Shown here: positions 2,629 through 62,571 of the stretch, piece after piece
Layout of the letters: each line of letters begins with the position of its first letter
Numbering within the stretch: the stretch's first letter is position 1
Notes under the pieces: generated by a model
What the model saw: only the letters and a program-made list of their open reading frames with translations
Told to the model about the DNA's origin: nothing
Databases searched by the model: none
NCBI GenBank assembly: GCA_964642275.1
Contig: CAZXOA010000002.1
Coordinates: 16,019-80,018 of the forward strand
From: an uncultured Candidatus Saccharibacteria bacterium
Lineage (GTDB): Bacteria > Patescibacteriota > Saccharimonadia > Saccharimonadales > JACDBH01
DNA: 64,000 nt
Direction of reading: 5' to 3'
Position numbers and translations under genes: made by a program

Positions 2629-3297
2629 TCAGATCTGGTAACTCAGGTCGGCGTAAAAGATACCGTCAGTAGTGTCGATTAATTGGACCAGATCATACAT
2701 ACTTGGAATCATACTGGAATCTTTAAAATCAGGTTCTTTGAGCCAAATATTCTCGCCATTCCGAGCTGCGTGGACAAGTTTGCCAGAGTAACTATCGGCA
2801 AACAGAAGCGTAAAGTGCACAAAACTTTCTTGATCATTGCCCCGGAACAGCTTCACATAGCCAGTACCTCTCACTTGGAAGTTACAGCTGAGGCCCGTTC
2901 TATCCATAAAGGTCTGCTTTGCCGTTACGGTAATCTTCTCGTTGCCCTTGGGTTCTGCATGGGTAAATCCGATTTTTTCAAACATCGGCTGCGCAAGCCG
3001 TTTTCTGAGCAGCCAGCCGTCTTCTTCTGTTCTGAGGCACAACAGCATAACTGAGTGCGCCTGCTCAAGCAGCTCTTTTTTACTGAGAGTCACATTGATA
3101 CCTGCTACTCGTCCGAGCGGGGTAAGGCTATAGAGGCCGTCGTCAGTTTTGAAGACAAGCTTCTCTTTAATAAGTTGCTTTAAATGATACGTAAATACAT
3201 TGCTGTCGACATGCCTGGGTCTTAGATCGGCAAACCTCGCAGAATCGCTCAGTACAAGCCGGTAGAGAATATCCTTTTGTAGGTGGTGTTCCTGCAT
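2629..3297 (-). CDS. winged-helix DNA-binding protein with an uncharacterised C-terminal domain
   Basis: 222 aa. The N-terminus (ILYRLVLSDSARFADL...TYHLKQLIKEKLV) looks like an ArsR/MarR-type wHTH. Confidence 0.55.
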   Translation of the reverse strand: MQEHHLQKDILYRLVLSDSARFADLRPRHVDSNVFTYHLKQLIKEKLVFKTDDGLYSLTPLGRVAGINVTLSKKELLEQAHSVMLLCLRTEEDGWLLRKRLAQPMFEKIGFTHAEPKGNEKITVTAKQTFMDRTGLSCNFQVRGTGYVKLFRGNDQESFVHFTLLFADSYSGKLVHAARNGENIWLKEPDFKDSSMIPSMYDLVQLIDTTDGIFYADLSYQI

Positions 3298-3459
3298 CGT
3301 AGGTCAATTCTATTTGACTCAAAACACTAAGTCTAGAGAATCTACCTGTCGCACAGTATCGTTATGGGTGTAAGCAAAGACCGTCAAGGTAAATTTTACG
3401 TTGAGAGTTCTGAGCAAAGATCAATAATTAACAGCGCACAATAACTTAGGAGATAGAAA

Positions 3460-12746: not shown

Positions 12747-12793
12747 AAAATCTAACATCTGGAATCTATATTCTAGCCAGACCCTATCTTTTC

Positions 12794-12823
12794 ATTATAT
12801 CATACTACTTATGCTTTTGTCAA
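12794..12823 (-). promoter_or_regulatory. promoter TTGACA-18-TATAAT (copy of the dispersed repeat), antisense to the maf 3' end
   Basis: The minus strand reads AACTTGACAAAAGCATAAGTAGTATGATATAATGAAAAGATAGGGT. Confidence 0.5.
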
Positions 12824-12831
12824 GTTTTTTA

Positions 12832-12860
12832 TTGACTTCATCTGTAAAATGGGCTAAAAT
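12832..12860 (+). promoter_or_regulatory. sigma70-type promoter TTGACT-17-TAAAAT
   Basis: The hexamers and 17-nt spacer were read directly. It points into the gene-free structured region. Confidence 0.55.
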
Positions 12861-12910
12861 GATTCCACTTTGAGATGGAGTGAATACGCTCTCTCAAGGG
12901 GTTATTTAAC

Positions 12911-12925
12911 AAGGTGTAGAAGTAA
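12911..12925. repeat. left copy of a 15-bp perfect inverted repeat (AAGGTGTAGAAGTAA)
   Basis: The reverse complement occurs at 13579-13593. Confidence 0.9.
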
Positions 12926-13578
12926 ATATTTCTCTGAGATGACGAATTTTGCTGGTCAATTTTGGCCGATAGAATTCGTTATCTCAGACTATTGAGATAC
13001 AAGAGTTGAGCCTGAGCTCTTCTGGGTGTGTATGACCATCCAGAAACGTTGCTCGGTTCGCCCACAGCAGCTGCGCATGGATCCGTGTCAAGATCAACAC
13101 GGGGAGTGCGGCTGCTGAGGTCATCGAGGCGACTTGGATCTGCCCCACAAGGCAAATTAAAATGGGAAACCGCTTTAGTGATCTGAGAAGCCTCGTCCAT
13201 GTGCAAGCCGTGCGCTTTCCTCTCGAATGAGAGATGTGCTGCACGCTTGTATGTCTGCCAGAGCAGTCTGAGTACATCGGGGGACGTCCTCAAGTACTGC
13301 TCTGGCAGAAGATTTCTGTTGCCTGGCCACCCGTCCGGGTTGGGCGACAGAAAAGCTCGCGTAAGGCTTGTCCTCCCCCTCTCCACTAGGAGGATGAGTA
13401 CCTGCGCGAGCAGCCCTGGTGGACCGGAGGTCGTGGTTCACCTCCACGTAACCTGACCTCCGGTCCCGGGGCACTGAATTGATCGCGCAAGTGATTGATT
13501 TGTCCTAAAAGGCGAAAGAAAGGTTCTCATGGTTGAGATATTGGTCGTAGCTGCATTTTTGCGCTCCCAACACTCCCG

Positions 13579-13593
13579 TTACTTCTACACCTT
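13579..13593. repeat. right copy of the 15-bp perfect inverted repeat (TTACTTCTACACCTT)
   Basis: Reverse complement of 12911-12925. Confidence 0.9.
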
Positions 13594-13642
13594 TTCACAC
13601 CTTATCCGAATGCATAACCGCGGTTGTGGCTTCAGACAATGT

Positions 13643-13671
13643 GTGACAGACAATCTATGCCCGCGTATACT
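13643..13671 (+). promoter_or_regulatory. promoter GTGACA-17-TATACT, 8 nt before the ABC exporter ATG (leaderless-type)
   Basis: Hexamers and spacing read directly. Confidence 0.55.
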
Positions 13672-13679
13672 GAAAGTAT

Positions 13680-15452
13680 ATGAGGTATATTCTTCGGATT
13701 CTCCGGTTTACTGGAGTGCTGCGCTGGTACTACGTGGGTATTTCTGTCCTGACGGTGCTTGTTAGTGTCACGACAGTCGTGCTGCCGTTCCTGAGCGGCC
13801 AGGCAATTGACGAAATCAGCAAAGGCACGTCCGGCAATGTCAGGACCGTTGTTATCCTGGCGCTGCTTATCTTTGCCATGGATGTGCTGGCAAACTTCCT
13901 CAACAATATCAGCGGTTTCTTAGGCGATCAGTTATCGGCCAAAATGAACCAGATATTATCCAACCGCTACTTTGAGCATTTGCTGTCGCTGCCGCAACGG
14001 TTCTTTGATGTGTCGCTCAGCGGCAAGCTGGTAGGACGTCTTAACCGGTCGGTGAATCAGCTGAGCAATTTTGCGCAGATGGTCAGCAACAACTTTATGC
14101 AGTTTATTGTCAGCACCTTGCTGGCTCTCATTATCGTAGCGTTTTATAGCTGGCCGGTGGCACTGATGCTGGGCTCGTTGTATCCGCTGTATATCTGGCT
14201 GACGGTGCGGACCTCTGACAAATGGCAGAAGTACCAGAAAGAAAAGAACGAGAACTATGATATCGCCAGCGGCCGGTTCAATGAGGCTATCACGCAGGTT
14301 AAGGTGATAAAAAGCTTTAATCAAGAAGCTCGTGAGCTATTGTTCTTTCAGCGCTATATCGCAAAAGCTGTGCGCATCAACAAGCCGCAGAGTATCTACT
14401 GGCACGTGCGCGATGTGCGCCGCCGGCTGCTGCTGAACGTCATTTTTCTGGGTGTGTACCTGTATATCTTTGTCGATGCGGTGCACGGCAATATTTCGCC
14501 TGGTGCGGCGGTAGCGCTGATACTGTATGCCCAGCAGATTCGTATTCCGATATTTACCATCAGCTTTTTGGTGGACAGCACGCAGCGTGCGGTAGCCGAC
14601 AGCCGGGATTATTTTGAACTTATGGATGAGAAGCCGGAAATCAATGATGCCAGCGATGCTGCCGTTCTGAAGGTTAAAAAAGGCGGAATTACTTTTGACA
14701 AGGTATCGTTTGCCTACGATAAGACACCGGTAGTGCAGGATATTTCGTTTGAGATTGCGCCAGACAGCAAGGTGGCGCTGGTTGGCGAGAGCGGCGAGGG
14801 CAAGACCACGCTGACGAATCTGCTGCTGAGATTGTATGAACCAGGGGACGGAAAAATTCTTATTGACGGGCAAGATATTACCCGTGCAACACAGGCATCG
14901 CTCAGAGGTTCGATTGCGGTGGTGTTCCAGGAACCGGCGCTGTTCAGCGGCACCATTAACGAAAATATTTCATACGCCAACAAACAAGCGACACAAGAGC
15001 AGATAGAAGCGGCCGCAAAGGCGGCCAATGCCCACGAATTTATTGCAGCGCTGCCAAAAGGGTATGATACCGAAATTGGCGAGCGCGGGCTCAAGCTTTC
15101 TGGCGGGCAGAAGCAGCGTATCGCGATTGCGCGGGCGCTACTGAAAGACGCGCCGATTCTGATACTCGATGAGGCCACAAGCAGTCTGGACAGTCGGTCT
15201 GAGGCGCTGGTACAGGAGGCGCTGGAGCGGCTTATGAAAGGCCGCACCACTATTATTATTGCGCACCGGTTGAGCACTATCGCGGCAGTCGACCAGATCG
15301 TGACGCTCAAAGGCGGCCGGGTTGATGAAATCGGAAACCCGGCGAAGCTGGCAAAATCCGGCGGCATCTATGCCCAACTGCTCAAGCTGCAGTCACGTAC
15401 CCCGACCGACAGAACCAAGGAACAATTAGAAGAATTCGAAATAGCTGGCTAA
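13680..15452 (+). CDS. ABC transporter, fused permease/ATP-binding exporter (MsbA-like)
   Basis: Six-TM exporter domain followed by Walker A GESGEGKTT, signature LSGGQKQR and Walker B ILILDEATS. Confidence 0.95.
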   Translation: MRYILRILRFTGVLRWYYVGISVLTVLVSVTTVVLPFLSGQAIDEISKGTSGNVRTVVILALLIFAMDVLANFLNNISGFLGDQLSAKMNQILSNRYFEHLLSLPQRFFDVSLSGKLVGRLNRSVNQLSNFAQMVSNNFMQFIVSTLLALIIVAFYSWPVALMLGSLYPLYIWLTVRTSDKWQKYQKEKNENYDIASGRFNEAITQVKVIKSFNQEARELLFFQRYIAKAVRINKPQSIYWHVRDVRRRLLLNVIFLGVYLYIFVDAVHGNISPGAAVALILYAQQIRIPIFTISFLVDSTQRAVADSRDYFELMDEKPEINDASDAAVLKVKKGGITFDKVSFAYDKTPVVQDISFEIAPDSKVALVGESGEGKTTLTNLLLRLYEPGDGKILIDGQDITRATQASLRGSIAVVFQEPALFSGTINENISYANKQATQEQIEAAAKAANAHEFIAALPKGYDTEIGERGLKLSGGQKQRIAIARALLKDAPILILDEATSSLDSRSEALVQEALERLMKGRTTIIIAHRLSTIAAVDQIVTLKGGRVDEIGNPAKLAKSGGIYAQLLKLQSRTPTDRTKEQLEEFEIAG

Positions 15453-22615: not shown

Positions 22616-22713
22616 CCCTATAATTTGACCGATGAGGGAGAATTATATGCCGAACCAGAGTTACTCCATCTATAAAAGTCAGAGAGTAACGCTGCGTGAA
22701 GCTATATCTTCAC

Positions 22714-22732
22714 ATTATATCACACTTGTCAA
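22714..22732 (-). promoter_or_regulatory. dispersed repeat copy: ACTTGACA-N7-TATAAT with TGaTATAAT extended -10
   Basis: The minus strand reads TACTTGACAAGTGTGATATAATGTGAAGATATAGCT. Confidence 0.45.
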
Positions 22733-22797
22733 GTAAAGTAAAGCTTCAGGCCATGAACACCTCTGTTATTTTTAAGGACATGGTGTTCTTGGCTTCT

Positions 22798-22823
22798 CAG
22801 CTAATTTCTTAAGAAATTAGCTG
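22798..22823. repeat. 26-nt perfect palindrome CAGCTAATTTCTTAAGAAATTAGCTG
   Basis: Read directly. Intergenic, upstream of the rpe-like gene. Confidence 0.9.
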
Positions 22824-22912
22824 CCCCACGTAAACGTGGGTGCATATAATTCTCGCTTACCGCTCAAATTATCACTATTTACACCTGTTGATAAACTGTT
22901 TATGCTTGAGGT

Positions 22913-34431: not shown

Positions 34432-34668
34432 ATGGGACCATCATTTCGAAGCGGCAGACGACGGGGACTGATTGCAGGAGCAGCGATAGGTTCGAGCCGG
34501 GCAAAGCGCGCGGCTGCAACATCTGCCGTACCAGCCCAGCCTGTGCCAACTGCAGATAACAGCCAGAACCAGATTAACCAGCTTAGACAGCTGGGCGAAC
34601 TGCGTGATCAGGGGATTTTGACCGAAGAAGAGTTTGCAGCTAAGAAAAAACAGATCTTAGGGCTATAG
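34432..34668 (+). CDS. SHOCT domain protein
   Basis: C-terminal LRDQGILTEEEFAAKKKQILG is the SHOCT motif. Confidence 0.7.
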   Translation: MGPSFRSGRRRGLIAGAAIGSSRAKRAAATSAVPAQPVPTADNSQNQINQLRQLGELRDQGILTEEEFAAKKKQILGL

Positions 34669-34758
34669 ATATCAGATAACCATAATTCGCTGGCAATGCA
34701 CCTTTGGTGGCTAAATGAGCATGCACCCTACATCGTGAGCGTGCTACCGTATCCTCTC

Positions 34759-34777
34759 ATTATATCACACCTGTCAA
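34759..34777 (-). promoter_or_regulatory. dispersed repeat copy: ACTTGACA-N7-TATAAT with TGaTATAAT extended -10
   Basis: The minus strand reads TACTTGACAGGTGTGATATAATGAGAGGATACGGTA. Confidence 0.45.
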
Positions 34778-34809
34778 GTAAAGTCAAGGTACTCATATGA
34801 TTTTCAAGG

Positions 34810-58933: not shown

Positions 58934-59908
58934 ATGAGCGGGGCGATGAAAAAATTCAGCATAGGGGCTTCTTTTGCCATACTCGCGGTAGTCGCTTTTG
59001 GGCTCGTGTTTCGAAACGACATCCACGACTATCTGAAACTACGCAACTACACTCCGTCAAAGGCAATTGTAGAGCTGGCCGATGCGACGACTATGCAAAG
59101 CGACGCACGGCGTCTTTTCTATGTCAATCATCCAGTGATTGCCGACAGCGAAGAGTTCAATAGCACCTGCCGTGAAAACGAACATTCGATAGTGCTGGGG
59201 TGTTATCTAACGGGTCAGCGCGGTATATATCTGTTGCACGTGACAGATGAGCGCCTTGCGGGTATCCAGGAGGTGACTGCGGCTCACGAGCTCCTGCATG
59301 CCGCGTATGAGCGCTTGAGCATTCGCGAGAGAAATCGGGTGGATGTATTGTTGGCTGACGTGTTCGCCAGTATCACCGATACGCGCGTAAAAGAGACCAT
59401 AGAGCTGTACAGAAGGCAGGACCCCGCTATTGTGCCAAATGAGCTGCACTCTATACTTGGCACTGAGGTGAGGGTACTCTCGGCCGAGCTCGAGACGTAC
59501 TATGCACGGTACTTTAAAGATCGTCAGAGGATAGTCAGTTTTGCTGAGGCGTACGAGCAGGCCTTTATCGAGCGGCGCAACATCATTCGCCAGTATGATG
59601 CCGAGCTTACAAGCCTCAAACAGCGTATCGACGCGCTTAGTTTGCAGCTGAGTACAGACGAGACACAGCTGCGTGCTCTGCGTCAGGAGATGGAGGGCTA
59701 TCGTTCGGCTCATCAAATCGAGCGGTATAACGAGCTGGTACCAATTTTTAACGGTCGCGTGGCCGCGTATAACACGGAGGTGGATGAGTTGAGTGCTTTG
59801 GTAGCGCGGTATAACGACACCGTGCAAAAGCGTAATGGTGTTGCTGCCGAAGAAGCTGAACTGGTTGATGCTATTGATAGCCGGGATGTGGTGCCGAAGC
59901 AGCAGTAG
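58934..59908 (+). CDS. hypothetical membrane-anchored protein with an HExxH motif and coiled coil
   Basis: N-terminal TM helix, AAHELLHAAYE (HExxH) and a long C-terminal coiled coil. The metalloprotease role is only a guess. Confidence 0.6.
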   Translation: MSGAMKKFSIGASFAILAVVAFGLVFRNDIHDYLKLRNYTPSKAIVELADATTMQSDARRLFYVNHPVIADSEEFNSTCRENEHSIVLGCYLTGQRGIYLLHVTDERLAGIQEVTAAHELLHAAYERLSIRERNRVDVLLADVFASITDTRVKETIELYRRQDPAIVPNELHSILGTEVRVLSAELETYYARYFKDRQRIVSFAEAYEQAFIERRNIIRQYDAELTSLKQRIDALSLQLSTDETQLRALRQEMEGYRSAHQIERYNELVPIFNGRVAAYNTEVDELSALVARYNDTVQKRNGVAAEEAELVDAIDSRDVVPKQQ

Positions 59909-60243
59909 TTTTCTTCCGTTCTTGTAGTCAAGAACCAACCCCTCTGTTACTTTTGATGGCAAAAGTAACCAAAACTACTGGGCCAAAATACCTCGTGACT
60001 CATCTGTATGCCAAAATCACAATGCCTCAGACAACTCCCTTTGGTCGGGCAGACAAGTTTCATAGTAGAGTTGTCTGCCTGAGTCTTCGGCAATAATTGT
60101 AATTATTGGCAACATCTGAATCAGGAGGTATTTTGATGCCCAGACCCGGAAAGCAGAAGCCCTGAATGGGCATTATTTATACACGGCCTATCGGCCGTGA
60201 AATGCGTGAAACAGGGGTGGATGAGCAAAAACGCTTGCAAAAC

Positions 60244-60263
60244 TTGACAATGTGTGGTATAAT
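60244..60263 (+). promoter_or_regulatory. dispersed repeat copy: ACTTGACA-N8-TATAAT with TGgTATAAT extended -10
   Basis: The plus strand reads AACTTGACAATGTGTGGTATAATGAGAGGATAGGGTG. Confidence 0.5.
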
Positions 60264-60313
60264 GAGAGGATAGGGTGTGTTTTTGAGCTAACACCGCTCC
60301 ACCCCCTGTACAT

Positions 60314-60327
60314 TGACAGAGTAGTGT
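60314..60327. repeat. left copy of a 14-bp perfect inverted repeat (TGACAGAGTAGTGT)
   Basis: The reverse complement occurs at 60799-60812. Confidence 0.9.
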
Positions 60328-60414
60328 TATTCCAGATTGACTAAGAGATCATATTTTTGTGGTTTGTTAGTCGATCTGGAAGGTTTCCATGATTTAGACT
60401 CCTCGGGAGGGGAA

Positions 60415-60639
60415 ATGAACTGGATTACTGTCGCAGTGATTATCTGCCTCACATGCGTGGCTGTCGCCACAGACATGTTACAAACTCTCGACCATGGGGG
60501 GTGTTCTGTCAGTCGCAAGGTCAGGAGATGGATTCTCGTCCTTTCACCCCTCTGGGTTGCGTTGGGAATCCTGCTCGTGATCGGTCTCATCTTGGAAAGA
60601 GTCCAAGAGAAAACCACCAGCTTCTTCACCGACCGGTGA
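60415..60639 (+). CDS. small two-TM hypothetical protein (74 aa), embedded in a structured non-coding-looking locus
   Basis: GGGAGGGG Shine-Dalgarno 2 nt upstream of ATG 60415. Two hydrophobic helices flank the loop SRKVRRW. The region also carries shadow ORFs on both strands, so coding status is uncertain. Confidence 0.4.
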   Translation: MNWITVAVIICLTCVAVATDMLQTLDHGGCSVSRKVRRWILVLSPLWVALGILLVIGLILERVQEKTTSFFTDR

Positions 60640-60686
60640 AGTAGTAAATTGATGAGCTGTGATTTACATGGGGCTCCCAGAAGAGG

Positions 60687-60704
60687 CGATTCATTAATGA
60701 ATCG
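60687..60704. repeat. 18-nt perfect palindrome CGATTCATTAATGAATCG
   Basis: Read directly. It sits at the tip of a longer GGGG...CCCC imperfect hairpin. Confidence 0.9.
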
Positions 60705-60798
60705 AACTTGCTTCTACCCCAGGGTGGTACTGAGACTTTGAAGGACTTGGTCTTTCGATTTTCTTTACCTTACACCCTCAACCCTGCGCCCTTTCCTC

Positions 60799-60812
60799 AC
60801 ACTACTCTGTCA
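60799..60812. repeat. right copy of the 14-bp perfect inverted repeat (ACACTACTCTGTCA)
   Basis: Reverse complement of 60314-60327. Confidence 0.9.
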
Positions 60813-60871
60813 TCTCACCAGAAAGTTTAAGAGTCTTTGTTGAACTTTGTGATGAGATTACATAAACAGCA

Positions 60872-60900
60872 CCCCGGCCAATGCCGGGGTTTCTGCTTTT
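60872..60900 (+). terminator. intrinsic terminator closing the 60.2-60.9 kb locus
   Basis: CCCCGGC-caat-GCCGGGG followed by TTTCTGCTTTT. Confidence 0.75.
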
Positions 60901-61210
60901 GTCCCGGCTTTCAGGAATCTGATTTGTCAGTGGCTATTCGGCTAGTTAGGTATATGTCACGAGGACTGTTTGAGACCGTTCAAGTCGAGTTTCACAGCGA
61001 CAAATTAGCCGGATAGACATCTGACAAGTCATGATTACTGAACCGCCGGTCAGGCTTTTGGCTTCTTTTCTGCTGAATCAGAAAAGAAGCGACTTGGTTC
61101 TTGGTCTCAAGAGCATCTATGAAAGGATTCCTTATCTAAGGAACAAGAGAGAGTTTAGTTTTTCACCAGAAGAACATAAGATTGCTTGAGGTTTGCGGTG
61201 AGAGAGGCGG

Positions 61211-61216
61211 TATACT
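61211..61216 (+). promoter_or_regulatory. -10 box TATACT 8 nt before the radA ATG
   Basis: gcggTATACTtagttcatATG. Confidence 0.5.
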
Positions 61217-61224
61217 TAGTTCAT

Positions 61225-62571
61225 ATGGCCAAAAAGGGAAGTATCAAGTACGTTTGCAACAGCTGCGGTGCAATGCATGGCTCGTGGATGGGCAAGTGTT
61301 CGGCGTGCGGCGAGTGGAACACGATAGTCGAACAGCTTGATAGCGCTGCTCTCATGGCGCCTGCTGGTCGTGCACTGCAGGCCACCGAAGCAAAAACACT
61401 CGCTGGTTCTAAGCAGCAGTCGCGTATTACTGCCGGCATTGCAACCGTCAACGAAGTGCTTGGCGGCGGTTTTGTGCCGGGTTCGGTCACGCTGATAGCC
61501 GGCCAGCCGGGTATTGGCAAGAGCACACTGCTTTTGCAGGTTGCCTACGAGGCGGCTCAGACAACCAAGGTGCTCTATATAAGCGGCGAGGAGTCAGTTC
61601 ACCAAGTGAGTCTGCGCGCCCAACGGCTTGGGGCTAATCATCAGAACTTATTGCTGGCTTCAAGTACTTCGACTGATGACATTGCTGCTACTATTGCCGC
61701 CGCCGAACAGTCACTGGTTGTTGTTGACTCGGTCCAGACGATATCAGTTGGCGCAGTGTCATCTGCGGCCGGTTCGGTCAGCCAGATTACCAACAGCACG
61801 CAGATGCTCATGCAGGCAGCCAAAACATCTAATACGGCACTGCTTCTGGTAGGGCATGTGACCAAAGAGGGTTCGATTGCCGGGCCAAAAGTGCTTGAGC
61901 ATGTGGTTGATGTGGTACTGCAGCTCGAGGGTGATCGTTATGGCGGGTTTAAGATACTTAGAAGCGTCAAGAATCGGTTTGGGAGTACGCATGAGTCGGC
62001 GATATTCGAGATGAAAGAAGAGGGCTTGATACCTGTCGAGAATCCGTCTGCATCGCTCCTCGAAGAGCGGCAGGTGAGCGACGGCTCGGTTGTGCTTGCG
62101 ACGGTCGAGGGCGCCCGCCCGCTTCTTGTCGAGGTGCAGGCACTGGTCAACACGACTGCGTACGGCTACCCTAAACGAACTGCCAGCGGCTACGATATCA
62201 ACAGGCTCAACCTGCTCGTGGCCATGCTCGAGAAACGCACCAAACTACAGCTGTCTGACAAAGACATTTATCTCAACATTGTCGGCGGTCTTAAGATTAC
62301 CGAGCCGGCAGCTGATTTAGCAGTCGCCATGGCAATTGCATCTGCATCAAAAGGCATGCAACTCAAGGATGATGCCGTGGTGTTTGGCGAACTCGGTCTG
62401 TCGGGCGAAATCCGCCGGGTGCCGTTTGCCGACAAACGTATTGCCGAGGCTAAGAAACTTGGGTTTAGCGGTGCTATTGTCCCAAAGAAAAGTACAGACA
62501 AGGCGTCGCGTGGCTTTGCGTACGAGGTAGCTGATATCAAATCTGCTCTCAATACATTCTTGAGTAAGTAG
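61225..62571 (+). CDS. radA: DNA repair protein RadA
   Basis: Zinc finger CNSCGA...CSACGEWN, Walker A GQPGIGKST, KNRFG and a Lon-like C-terminal domain. ATG lies 8 nt after TATACT. Confidence 0.95.
   Translation: MAKKGSIKYVCNSCGAMHGSWMGKCSACGEWNTIVEQLDSAALMAPAGRALQATEAKTLAGSKQQSRITAGIATVNEVLGGGFVPGSVTLIAGQPGIGKSTLLLQVAYEAAQTTKVLYISGEESVHQVSLRAQRLGANHQNLLLASSTSTDDIAATIAAAEQSLVVVDSVQTISVGAVSSAAGSVSQITNSTQMLMQAAKTSNTALLLVGHVTKEGSIAGPKVLEHVVDVVLQLEGDRYGGFKILRSVKNRFGSTHESAIFEMKEEGLIPVENPSASLLEERQVSDGSVVLATVEGARPLLVEVQALVNTTAYGYPKRTASGYDINRLNLLVAMLEKRTKLQLSDKDIYLNIVGGLKITEPAADLAVAMAIASASKGMQLKDDAVVFGELGLSGEIRRVPFADKRIAEAKKLGFSGAIVPKKSTDKASRGFAYEVADIKSALNTFLSK

Follow-up and report, generated by a model that had tools for sequence, protein, structure and literature searches.

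We analysed a stretch of 64,000 nucleotides (nt) from an uncultured Candidatus Saccharibacteria bacterium, referred to below as the window, with a focus on the spacer between p324, the gene of a 324-residue HExxH protein, and radA. A RadA-guided search placed the window within the Saccharimonadales (Saccharibacteria/TM7), and the gene order clpC, p324, radA was kept in 24 Saccharimonadales loci. In the window, where the neighbouring genes encode ClpC, the HExxH protein, RadA and a PBP, the p324–radA spacer measures 1316 nt, compared with 20–100 nt in most relatives. As Saccharibacteria have tiny genomes with little non-coding DNA, a strongly promoted and heavily structured spacer of 1.3 kb is conspicuous. 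Comparison with related genomes shows this spacer to host a cassette that is restricted to certain lineages, with an RNA frame that is conserved and covaries and with cargo that can be exchanged; in the window the cargo is a 74-residue open reading frame (ORF), termed p74.

A putative structured transcription unit upstream of radA

An initial sequence-only reading had described this locus as a promoter, a leader, an inverted repeat enclosing a hairpin-rich core with a small ORF, and a terminator. Reading the sequence directly, we recovered every one of these elements, all on the + strand. The promoter P1 (60205–60263) comprises an upstream AACAGGGGTGGAT box, a −35 element TTGCAA (60235–60240), an inner TTGACA (60244–60249) and TG-n-TATAAT (60255–60263), matching the consensus at 10 of 12 positions in addition to the TG, with the −35 at a spacing of 17 nt. 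The TG-n-TATAAT had been recognized correctly, whereas the TTGACA formerly assigned as −35 lies only 8 nt from TATAAT and therefore cannot act as such, the role being taken by TTGCAA. Upstream of P1, a 9-codon ORF (MPRPGKQKP) is located behind an AGGAGG (60123–60166).

The predicted transcript starts at AUAGGGU with the 5′-terminal hairpin H1 (60270–60309), which was obtained in the minimum free energy (MFE) as well as in the centroid structure. It is followed by the left arm TGACAGAGTAGTGT (60314–60327) of a perfect 14-base-pair (bp) inverted repeat, recovered by a repeat search, whose partner is the right arm ACACTACTCTGTCA (60799–60812); paired, the two arms form the closing helix H2. Across the whole window, perfect inverted repeats with arms 60–1500 nt apart numbered two at a length of at least 14 bp (0.33 expected) and seven at a length of at least 13 bp (1.1 expected). 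A TTGACA at the left arm was considered by eye as an internal promoter and rejected, as no −10 element lies downstream of it in any locus.

Directly 3′ of the left arm lies the long hairpin H3 (60330–60381) with arms of 22 nt; the 13-bp stem that had been described as a complete element is present and constitutes the base of this longer hairpin. The Shine–Dalgarno (SD) region (60399–60414), with the strong SD GGGAGGGG at 60405–60412 and a CUCC upstream of it, is predicted to be base-paired and precedes p74 (60415–60639), which is also annotated by NCBI (P0001). The motif CTTGGA-aagag-TCCAAG (60592–60608) is found inside the ORF and a near-palindrome covers its stop codon (60624–60641). Beyond the ORF, direct reading and folding both yielded H5 (60670–60721), a hairpin clamped by GGGG...CCCC and carrying a perfect 18-nt palindrome (60687–60704) at its tip. 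An inverted-repeat search yielded the two-tier 3′ hairpin H6 (60807–60861), which abuts the right arm, and the unit closes with an intrinsic terminator (60871–60900) composed of a stem of 8 pairs, 7 of them G-C (60871–60890), followed by the U-rich TTTCTGCTTTT.

The fold of the transcript (60270–60900) gave a z-score of −7.0 relative to shuffled sequences, and that of its counterpart in a related locus, L024, −8.7. H2 was present in both the MFE and the centroid structure with a mean pair probability of 0.95, and partition-function folds of the full transcripts gave 0.95–0.99 for the window, L024 and a further related locus, L050. Its loop spans from just before H3 to 77 nt beyond H5. For the SD core the unpaired probability was 0.01–0.08 in the window and at most 0.1 in all four loci carrying the cassette, the fourth being L007. 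The pairing partner is a short upstream anti-SD in L024 (UCC/GGA) and L007 (CUUCC/GGAAG) and a distal segment in L050 (C/U-rich, 3039–3044) and in the window (60790–60796, just 5′ of the right arm).

We further assessed the coding character of p74, proposed earlier as an ORF with two transmembrane (TM) segments. Its frame-0 codon score of +0.206 was the best of the three frames and exceeded those of all 320 off-frame 74-codon chunks taken from genes of the window, and its AlphaFold model consists of two helices (residues 3–27 and 33–73; pLDDT 73) arranged as a helical hairpin. It shares 33% identity over 49 residues (E = 0.03) with a 78-residue ORF of L024, including the topology and a basic loop between the helices. 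An exact-sequence look-up of p74 returned no record, and a word-indexed protein search retrieved p74 itself and, for the L024 ORF, a 97%-identical cluster. Searches of Pfam, PHROGs, NCBIfam and PADLOC assigned neither p74 nor the cargo of the related loci to any family with significance, matches to SHOCT and GNAT domains falling exclusively outside the cassette (neighbours in L007), and tblastn against phages gave no match. On balance, p74 is probably translated. A 100-residue antisense ORF in the cassette had a negative codon score.

The −10 box of radA (TATACT; 61211–61227, + strand) is located 8 nt before the ATG, with no SD. Irrespective of spacer length, which was as short as 21–30 nt in some, the inspected relatives all showed a TATACT or TATAAT 6–10 nt 5′ of the radA start codon, again with no SD. 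The radA mRNA is thus very probably leaderless with a promoter of its own, so that P1 would not be needed for radA. The same configuration, a TAYAMT-like −10 element 4–12 nt before the start codon with no SD, applied to 15 of the 59 ORFs of the window (e.g. 61211–61227, 13666–13682, 41149, 46596, 49582), which suggests that leaderless mRNAs are frequent in this organism. A second, partly degenerate copy of H6 (61155–61207, + strand; 46.1 bits with the H6 model R2 introduced below) immediately precedes the radA −10 box, and both copies begin with the 9-nt direct repeat TCACCAGAA (60815–60823 and 61163–61171). The approximately 340 nt of extra sequence between the two copies (60824–61162), which include the terminator, had no match elsewhere in the window or in the fetched loci; neither a SHOCT remnant nor any repeat was found in 60862–61160.

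Frame and cargo in related genomes

Comparison of the p324–radA spacers revealed the unit to be a presence/absence polymorphism among relatives. The P1 block is present in L003, L004, L024, L050 and L007, with a consensus score of 10–12 of 12 plus the TG at every P1 locus and with ATAGGGT 6 nt downstream of the −10 box in all of them. Two of these loci, L003 and L004, are empty, with no cassette: P1, a short hairpin, CTGTCA and a two-tier H6 are located some 100 nt upstream of radA. The other three are loaded, carrying the frame at the same place and repeating the layout of the window element by element, that is H1, a left arm starting with (T)GACAGA, H3, an SD-preceded ORF, H5, a right arm ending with TCTGTC(A), and H6. 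Hairpins analogous to H1 occur in all three, covariation of H1 being weak, as do GC-clamped H5 counterparts with palindromic tips at the same position. The outer part of the right arm, CTCTGTCA, also exists in the cassette-less leader of L003, and its CTGTCA in L004. L024 represents a family of eight contigs (L024, L029–L033, L048 and L049) that are 98.5–99.4% identical and hence too close for covariation analysis. Among further relatives found with RadA as guide, L050 was the sole new loaded locus, the others being unloaded or duplicates. The RadA subclade of L024, L050 and L007 also holds the unloaded L035, L054, L055 and L056, and the window represents a separate lineage. Upstream of P1, L003 (2669–2710) and L004 (3707–3800) contain runs of AATAGG(A/T)AAT-like tandem motifs.

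The sequences of the four loaded lineages were then compared helix by helix. Positions 1–6 of H2 (GACAGA/TCTGTC) are identical in all four. Positions 7–13 read GTAGTGT in the window, AACAAGT in L024 and AACAAAG in L050, with Watson–Crick pairs in each case, and L007 retains 8 pairs plus a U-G and an A-U. The helix accordingly measures 14 bp in the window, 15 in L024, 13 in L050 and about 8–10 in L007. For H3, 20 pairs could be aligned over four species with 95% of the cells paired and 10 pairs compensatory, a result reached by none of 500 shuffles; register-shifted controls gave 24–45% pairing. For H6, for which seven sequences including the empty loci and the second copy of the window were available, 15 pairs were 91% paired and 9 of them compensatory, reached by 3 of 500 shuffles. 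Covariance models built for the arm together with H3 (R1) and for H6 (R2) scored 75–81 bits on the + strand against 27–38 bits on the − strand (window, 74.8 versus 27.1) and 46–55 against 17–27 bits (H6 of the window, 48.2), respectively. The roughly twofold higher + strand scores, as expected if G-U pairs matter, point to the P1 transcript rather than double-stranded DNA as the folded molecule. These data are suggestive of selection on the frame helices at the RNA level. Between the lineages the helices are conserved and the ORF is barely so, the opposite of the outcome that would have refuted the earlier reading, a conserved ORF with drifting helices.

A search of 395,722 bases, the window included, with R1 and R2 retrieved only copies in the radA spacer. 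Rfam 15 gave no match in the window at the gathering threshold, and a search of both this locus and the 12.9-kb locus described below at E ≤ 10 produced nothing meaningful, the best match in 59850–61250 reaching 19 bits with E > 1. ARAGORN found no tRNA or tmRNA, and a literature search on Saccharibacteria non-coding RNA, leaderless genes and structured RNA found nothing relevant.

The cargo enclosed by the frame differs between lineages. The window carries the 74-residue two-helix protein; L024 carries a two-helix protein of 78 residues and a hydrophobic one of 29; L050 encodes 117 residues and a hydrophobic 25-residue peptide; L007 encodes 106 residues, a 69-residue zinc ribbon and a hydrophobic 20-residue peptide. 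The 117-residue protein of L050 and the 106-residue protein of L007 are homologous (E = 1e-14) and belong to no known family, and in every loaded locus an SD-preceded ORF occupies the same position after H3. The L050 117-residue gene (2708–3061) has a G+C content at third codon positions (GC3) of 0.93, the genome as a whole being at about 50% G+C, which suggests recent acquisition from a donor of high G+C content. Other genomes hold unrelated genes in the same spacer: an SDR gene, an extra 316-residue gene, a second p324-sized gene (326 residues), a GNAT gene and a SHOCT gene were observed in L047, L053, L054, L007 and L034, which identifies the p324–radA spacer as a hot spot for gene gain.

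Such turnover raises the possibility that the relevant entity is DNA, in which case a mobile but non-autonomous cassette would have the 14-bp repeats either as its terminal inverted repeats or as its sites of recombination. The perfect arms with their conserved outer end TGACAGA would fit, as would the variable presence among close relatives, the exchange of cargo with one gene at a GC3 of 0.93, and the SDR, GNAT, SHOCT and 316-residue genes found in this spacer elsewhere. However, the flanks of the arms (...tacat / TGACAG and CTGTCA / tctca) contain no direct repeat, no transposase or recombinase gene adjoins, and part of the right arm already exists in the empty sites. All four versions reside at one locus, with no copy elsewhere in the window or in the 43 related loci, and H3 and H6 are strand-asymmetric. 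We therefore consider a DNA-level element very unlikely, and the earlier suggestion of an insert resembling a miniature inverted-repeat transposable element (MITE) was abandoned for the lack of a target-site duplication, of a second copy in the 395,722 bases and of strand-symmetric helices. Its resemblance to phage morons and integron cassettes lies in a small orphan gene that is flanked by conserved genes and equipped with both promoter and terminator, and in exchangeable cargo of which one gene is foreign in composition (L050); the cassette differs from them in having no phage matches, no integrase and a single slot at one locus. Inspection of H3 by eye for a resemblance to attC sites was negative, the polarity of its GTTAGG...CCTAAC being the reverse of the attC R″/R′ order.

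As the repeats flank the ORF while the promoter lies outside, and the opposite strand contains the 100-residue ORF, a recombinase could conceivably flip the enclosed segment relative to P1. We regard an invertible switch of this kind as extremely unlikely: all eight contigs of the L024 family and the four lineages display one and the same orientation, the antisense ORF scored negative in codon usage, no recombinase gene is found nearby, and the structures are strand-specific.

P1-type promoters and the 12.9-kb unit

P1 has relatives elsewhere in the window. The arrangement TTGACA-N7/8-TATAAT was found three times (60244 on the + strand, 34759 and 22714 on the − strand) with 0.00 expected. P1-family copies at 60205–60276 (+), 34746–34800 (−), 22700–22760 (−) and 12781–12823 (−) share an AACAGRGGTR box, the −35 element, the inner TTGACA 7–8 nt from TG-n-TATAAT, a GAGAGG and an ATA(G/C)GGT start. 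These dispersed promoters might form a regulon or represent a promoter module that is portable. The copy at 22.7 kb lies in a 297-nt intergenic region (22616–22912) with a 13-bp perfect long-range repeat (22638–22650 / 22842–22854), enclosing a 29-residue SD-preceded ORF (22647–22736) and the antisense P1-family promoter (22732 to 22714).

At three places, a gene for a SHOCT-domain protein of 77–78 residues is faced by a convergent P1-family promoter, which would yield an antisense RNA: at 34432–34800 in the window, at 2646–2876 (−) in L007 and at 3175–3405 (−) in L034. This module lies within the p324–radA spacer in L007 and L034, and at 34.4–34.8 kb in the window, where the SHOCT protein has 78 residues.

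These antisense arrangements bear on the question of whether H2 serves the host rather than the cassette. The P1 transcript might be an older functional leader or antisense RNA into which the cassette was inserted, H2 then looping the insert out or acting as an RNase III stalk that brings H1 and H6 side by side. Consistent with this, a consensus-grade P1 is retained in the cassette-less L003 and L004 together with ATAGGGT, CTGTCA and an H6 that covaries, the outer right arm CTCTGTCA belongs to a cassette-less leader, and H6 directly abuts the right arm. In addition, the P1 transcript runs antisense into the SHOCT gene in L034 and L007, as does that of the paralogous promoter at 34.7 kb. On the other hand, radA has its own leaderless promoter, and since in the window a terminator follows H6 with no SHOCT gene or remnant downstream, nothing would be left to protect, which renders this explanation less compelling. 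RNase III usually cuts helices of roughly 20 bp, and H2, with 13–15 bp, is shorter than its usual substrate. We rate a host-serving role of H2, the main rival explanation, as unlikely. The processing stalks of rRNA operons and other long-range RNase III helices are comparable, in that a functional RNA is closed into a loop by covarying complementary segments that lie hundreds of nucleotides from each other; here the helix is perfect and of 13–15 bp (8–10 in L007), and the enclosed RNA is an mRNA.

The sequence-only reading had suggested that the cassette belongs to one class with a second locus of the window. This second unit is a 784-nt promoter-driven RNA (12867–13650, + strand) with no Rfam match and with a perfect 15-bp closing helix (12911–12925 / 13579–13593). 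It lies between a Maf-like gene and an ABC-transporter gene. A promoter (TTGACT-17-TAAAAT) and a 5′ hairpin open the unit, the left arm is immediately succeeded by a hairpin whose arms measure 27 nt, and another hairpin adjoins the right arm; then come GTGACA-17-TATACT and the ABC-transporter gene, which is leaderless with its ATG at 13680. Its core contains about nine long G+C-rich hairpins (z = −9.7) and no credible SD-preceded ORF. An exact TATAAT-N6-ATAGGGT (12781–12799, − strand) stands back to back with the unit. The likeness thus holds for the layout, both units having a promoter and a 5′ hairpin, a first arm with a long hairpin next to it, a closing arm abutted by a 3′ hairpin, and the −10 element of a leaderless gene. 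It does not extend further: the sequences are unlike, as had been noticed at the outset, R1 and R2 found no match in 12.7–13.7 kb, the promoter lies outside the P1 family, and no ORF is carried. The 50-nt offset between −10 box and left arm, pointed out earlier as common to the two loci, is indeed found at both (60263 to 60314; 12860 to 12911); in L024, L050 and L007 it is 70, 73 and 70 nt, respectively, and is consequently no conserved property. From these comparisons, common descent of the two units appears unsupported.

The 12.9-kb unit, with the same layout, no credible ORF and an even lower z-score, invites the view that the cassette is a purely non-coding structured RNA in which the 74-residue ORF is incidental, and so does the conservation of structure rather than of the ORF. 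Against this stand the SD-preceded ORF at the same position after H3 in every loaded locus, the homology of the L050 and L007 cargo proteins, and the frame-0 codon score of p74 above all off-frame controls, and we judge such an RNA to be very improbable.

A proposed small-protein cassette in an RNA frame

The layout of the window unit resembles that of type I toxin mRNAs, for which a 5′ stem-loop, an anti-SD, a 3′ terminator and a 5′–3′ long-distance interaction serve as descriptors (PMC8594479). As in hok/Sok of plasmid R1 and aapA1/IsoA1 of Helicobacter pylori, a strong promoter and a 5′ stem-loop are combined with a long-distance helix around the ORF, an SD predicted to be masked, a terminator hairpin, a product that is small and hydrophobic, and a patchy intergenic distribution of orphans. 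The match of the promoter, 5′ hairpin, long-distance helix, masked SD, small hydrophobic product and terminator to these descriptors leads to the explanation that we tentatively favour, at a likelihood somewhat short of even: the unit may be an accessory cassette for a small protein, with an RNA frame that holds a strongly transcribed mRNA in a compact, stable form of low translation.

According to this model, P1 would give rise to an mRNA of about 630 nt that ends at the intrinsic terminator and encodes the 74-residue two-helix membrane protein. The coding part would lie inside the frame, with H1 at the 5′ end, H2 closing the loop, H3, the paired SD, H5 after the ORF and H6 abutting the right arm. 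The frame would thereby render the mRNA for the small hydrophobic protein compact and resistant to end-dependent nucleases, and would restrict the initiation of translation until remodelling or processing of the RNA occurs. The activity of P1, the production of p74 and the control of stability and translation by the helices are what we infer from these features. Two interpretations offered separately at the outset, a structured or dual-function RNA and a small membrane-peptide cassette, are hereby merged into one, a coding cassette inside an RNA frame whose helices are kept by compensatory change and shared by three other species.

A more specific alternative holds that the locus is itself a type I toxin–antitoxin system, with p74, or elsewhere the hydrophobic ORFs of 20–29 residues, as toxin and an overlooked antisense RNA as antitoxin. 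The mRNA architecture fits the published descriptors (PMC8594479), and in silico the lock on the mRNA, a 5′–3′ long-distance helix together with SD sequestration, is present. The hydrophobic ORFs with basic tails in L024 (29 residues), L050 (25) and L007 (20), the patchy distribution and the orphan proteins also point this way, as does a weak antisense promoter-like site at 60467 to 60439 that matches at 9 of 12 positions. However, no antisense promoter is conserved in position or sequence across L024, L050 and L007: no minus-strand promoter was found in L024 or L050, and no minus-strand −10 element is positionally conserved in the four loci. Type I toxins usually have fewer than 60 residues and one TM helix, a size that p74 with its 74 residues and two helices exceeds; one-TM ORFs of 20–29 residues do exist in L024, L050 and L007, though not in the window. 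Moreover, no Rfam, Pfam, NCBIfam or PADLOC match was obtained, nor any sequence or model similarity to hok/Sok or aapA1/IsoA1. H2 also avoids the extreme ends of the transcript, starting about 45 nt in and ending about 90 nt before the 3′ end, and in other species the same frame carries non-hydrophobic proteins of 106–117 residues.

A type I system is therefore quite unlikely, and the earlier term toxin-like is retained as an analogy only. The cassette resembles type I toxin mRNAs in design and fails on what defines the family, as a conserved cis-antisense promoter for an antitoxin is absent. Given that Rfam, Pfam and phage searches gave no match, that the 395,722 bases contain no second copy and that no antisense promoter is conserved, the cassette is neither a MITE nor a demonstrable type I toxin–antitoxin system.

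Several observations weigh against the favoured small-protein cassette. The codon score of p74, while above the off-frame controls, falls in the lowest 4% of chunks from real genes. p74 and the L024 protein are orphans of marginal mutual similarity (E = 0.03), and a profile built from both retrieved, out of 1.84 billion representatives, only these two and a repetitive 747-residue match judged spurious. L024 and L050 have no terminator before radA, so that the description as a self-contained unit applies to the window only. The nearest relative by RadA (L046, 85%) has a 79-nt spacer with neither P1 nor cassette, by which the unit is dispensable. The SD partners differ between loci, and masking could thus be a byproduct of a G+C-rich fold. 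In L007, H2 comprises only 8–10 bp and its pair probability was about 0 in a fold for which the register had been set one base off. Finally, the sample holds four independent versions of the frame, and with just four to seven independent sequences the covariation statistics are weak, suggestive rather than conclusive.

A broader, speculative reading takes P1-H1-H2-H3...H5-H2′-H6 as a reusable RNA slot, a conserved scaffold of one Saccharimonadales clade that accepts unrelated small genes, the covarying closing helix insulating each cargo as a folding domain. Together with the ORF-less 12.9-kb unit and the P1-type antisense promoters it would then constitute a genome-wide family of loop-closed transcripts upstream of leaderless genes, which we consider unlikely. 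The L050 cargo gene with its GC3 of 0.93 may in that case derive from a high-G+C donor, for instance an actinobacterial host. To our knowledge, there is no description of such an organisation of loop-closed transcripts in Candidate Phyla Radiation bacteria.

If the small-protein cassette in its RNA frame is borne out, the frame would represent a new RNA structural family absent from Rfam. It would also set the function of the frame apart from that of the cargo, compensatory change having maintained a long-range mRNA helix around genes that are themselves exchanged, a combination rarely encountered. The radA-adjacent hot spot for gene gain comes with a near-identical promoter family that may form a regulon. 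For the Saccharibacteria, the cassette would offer a lead on how epibionts, i.e. host-attached bacteria, produce small membrane proteins and possibly keep them in check, proteins whose targets may be the epibionts themselves or the hosts.

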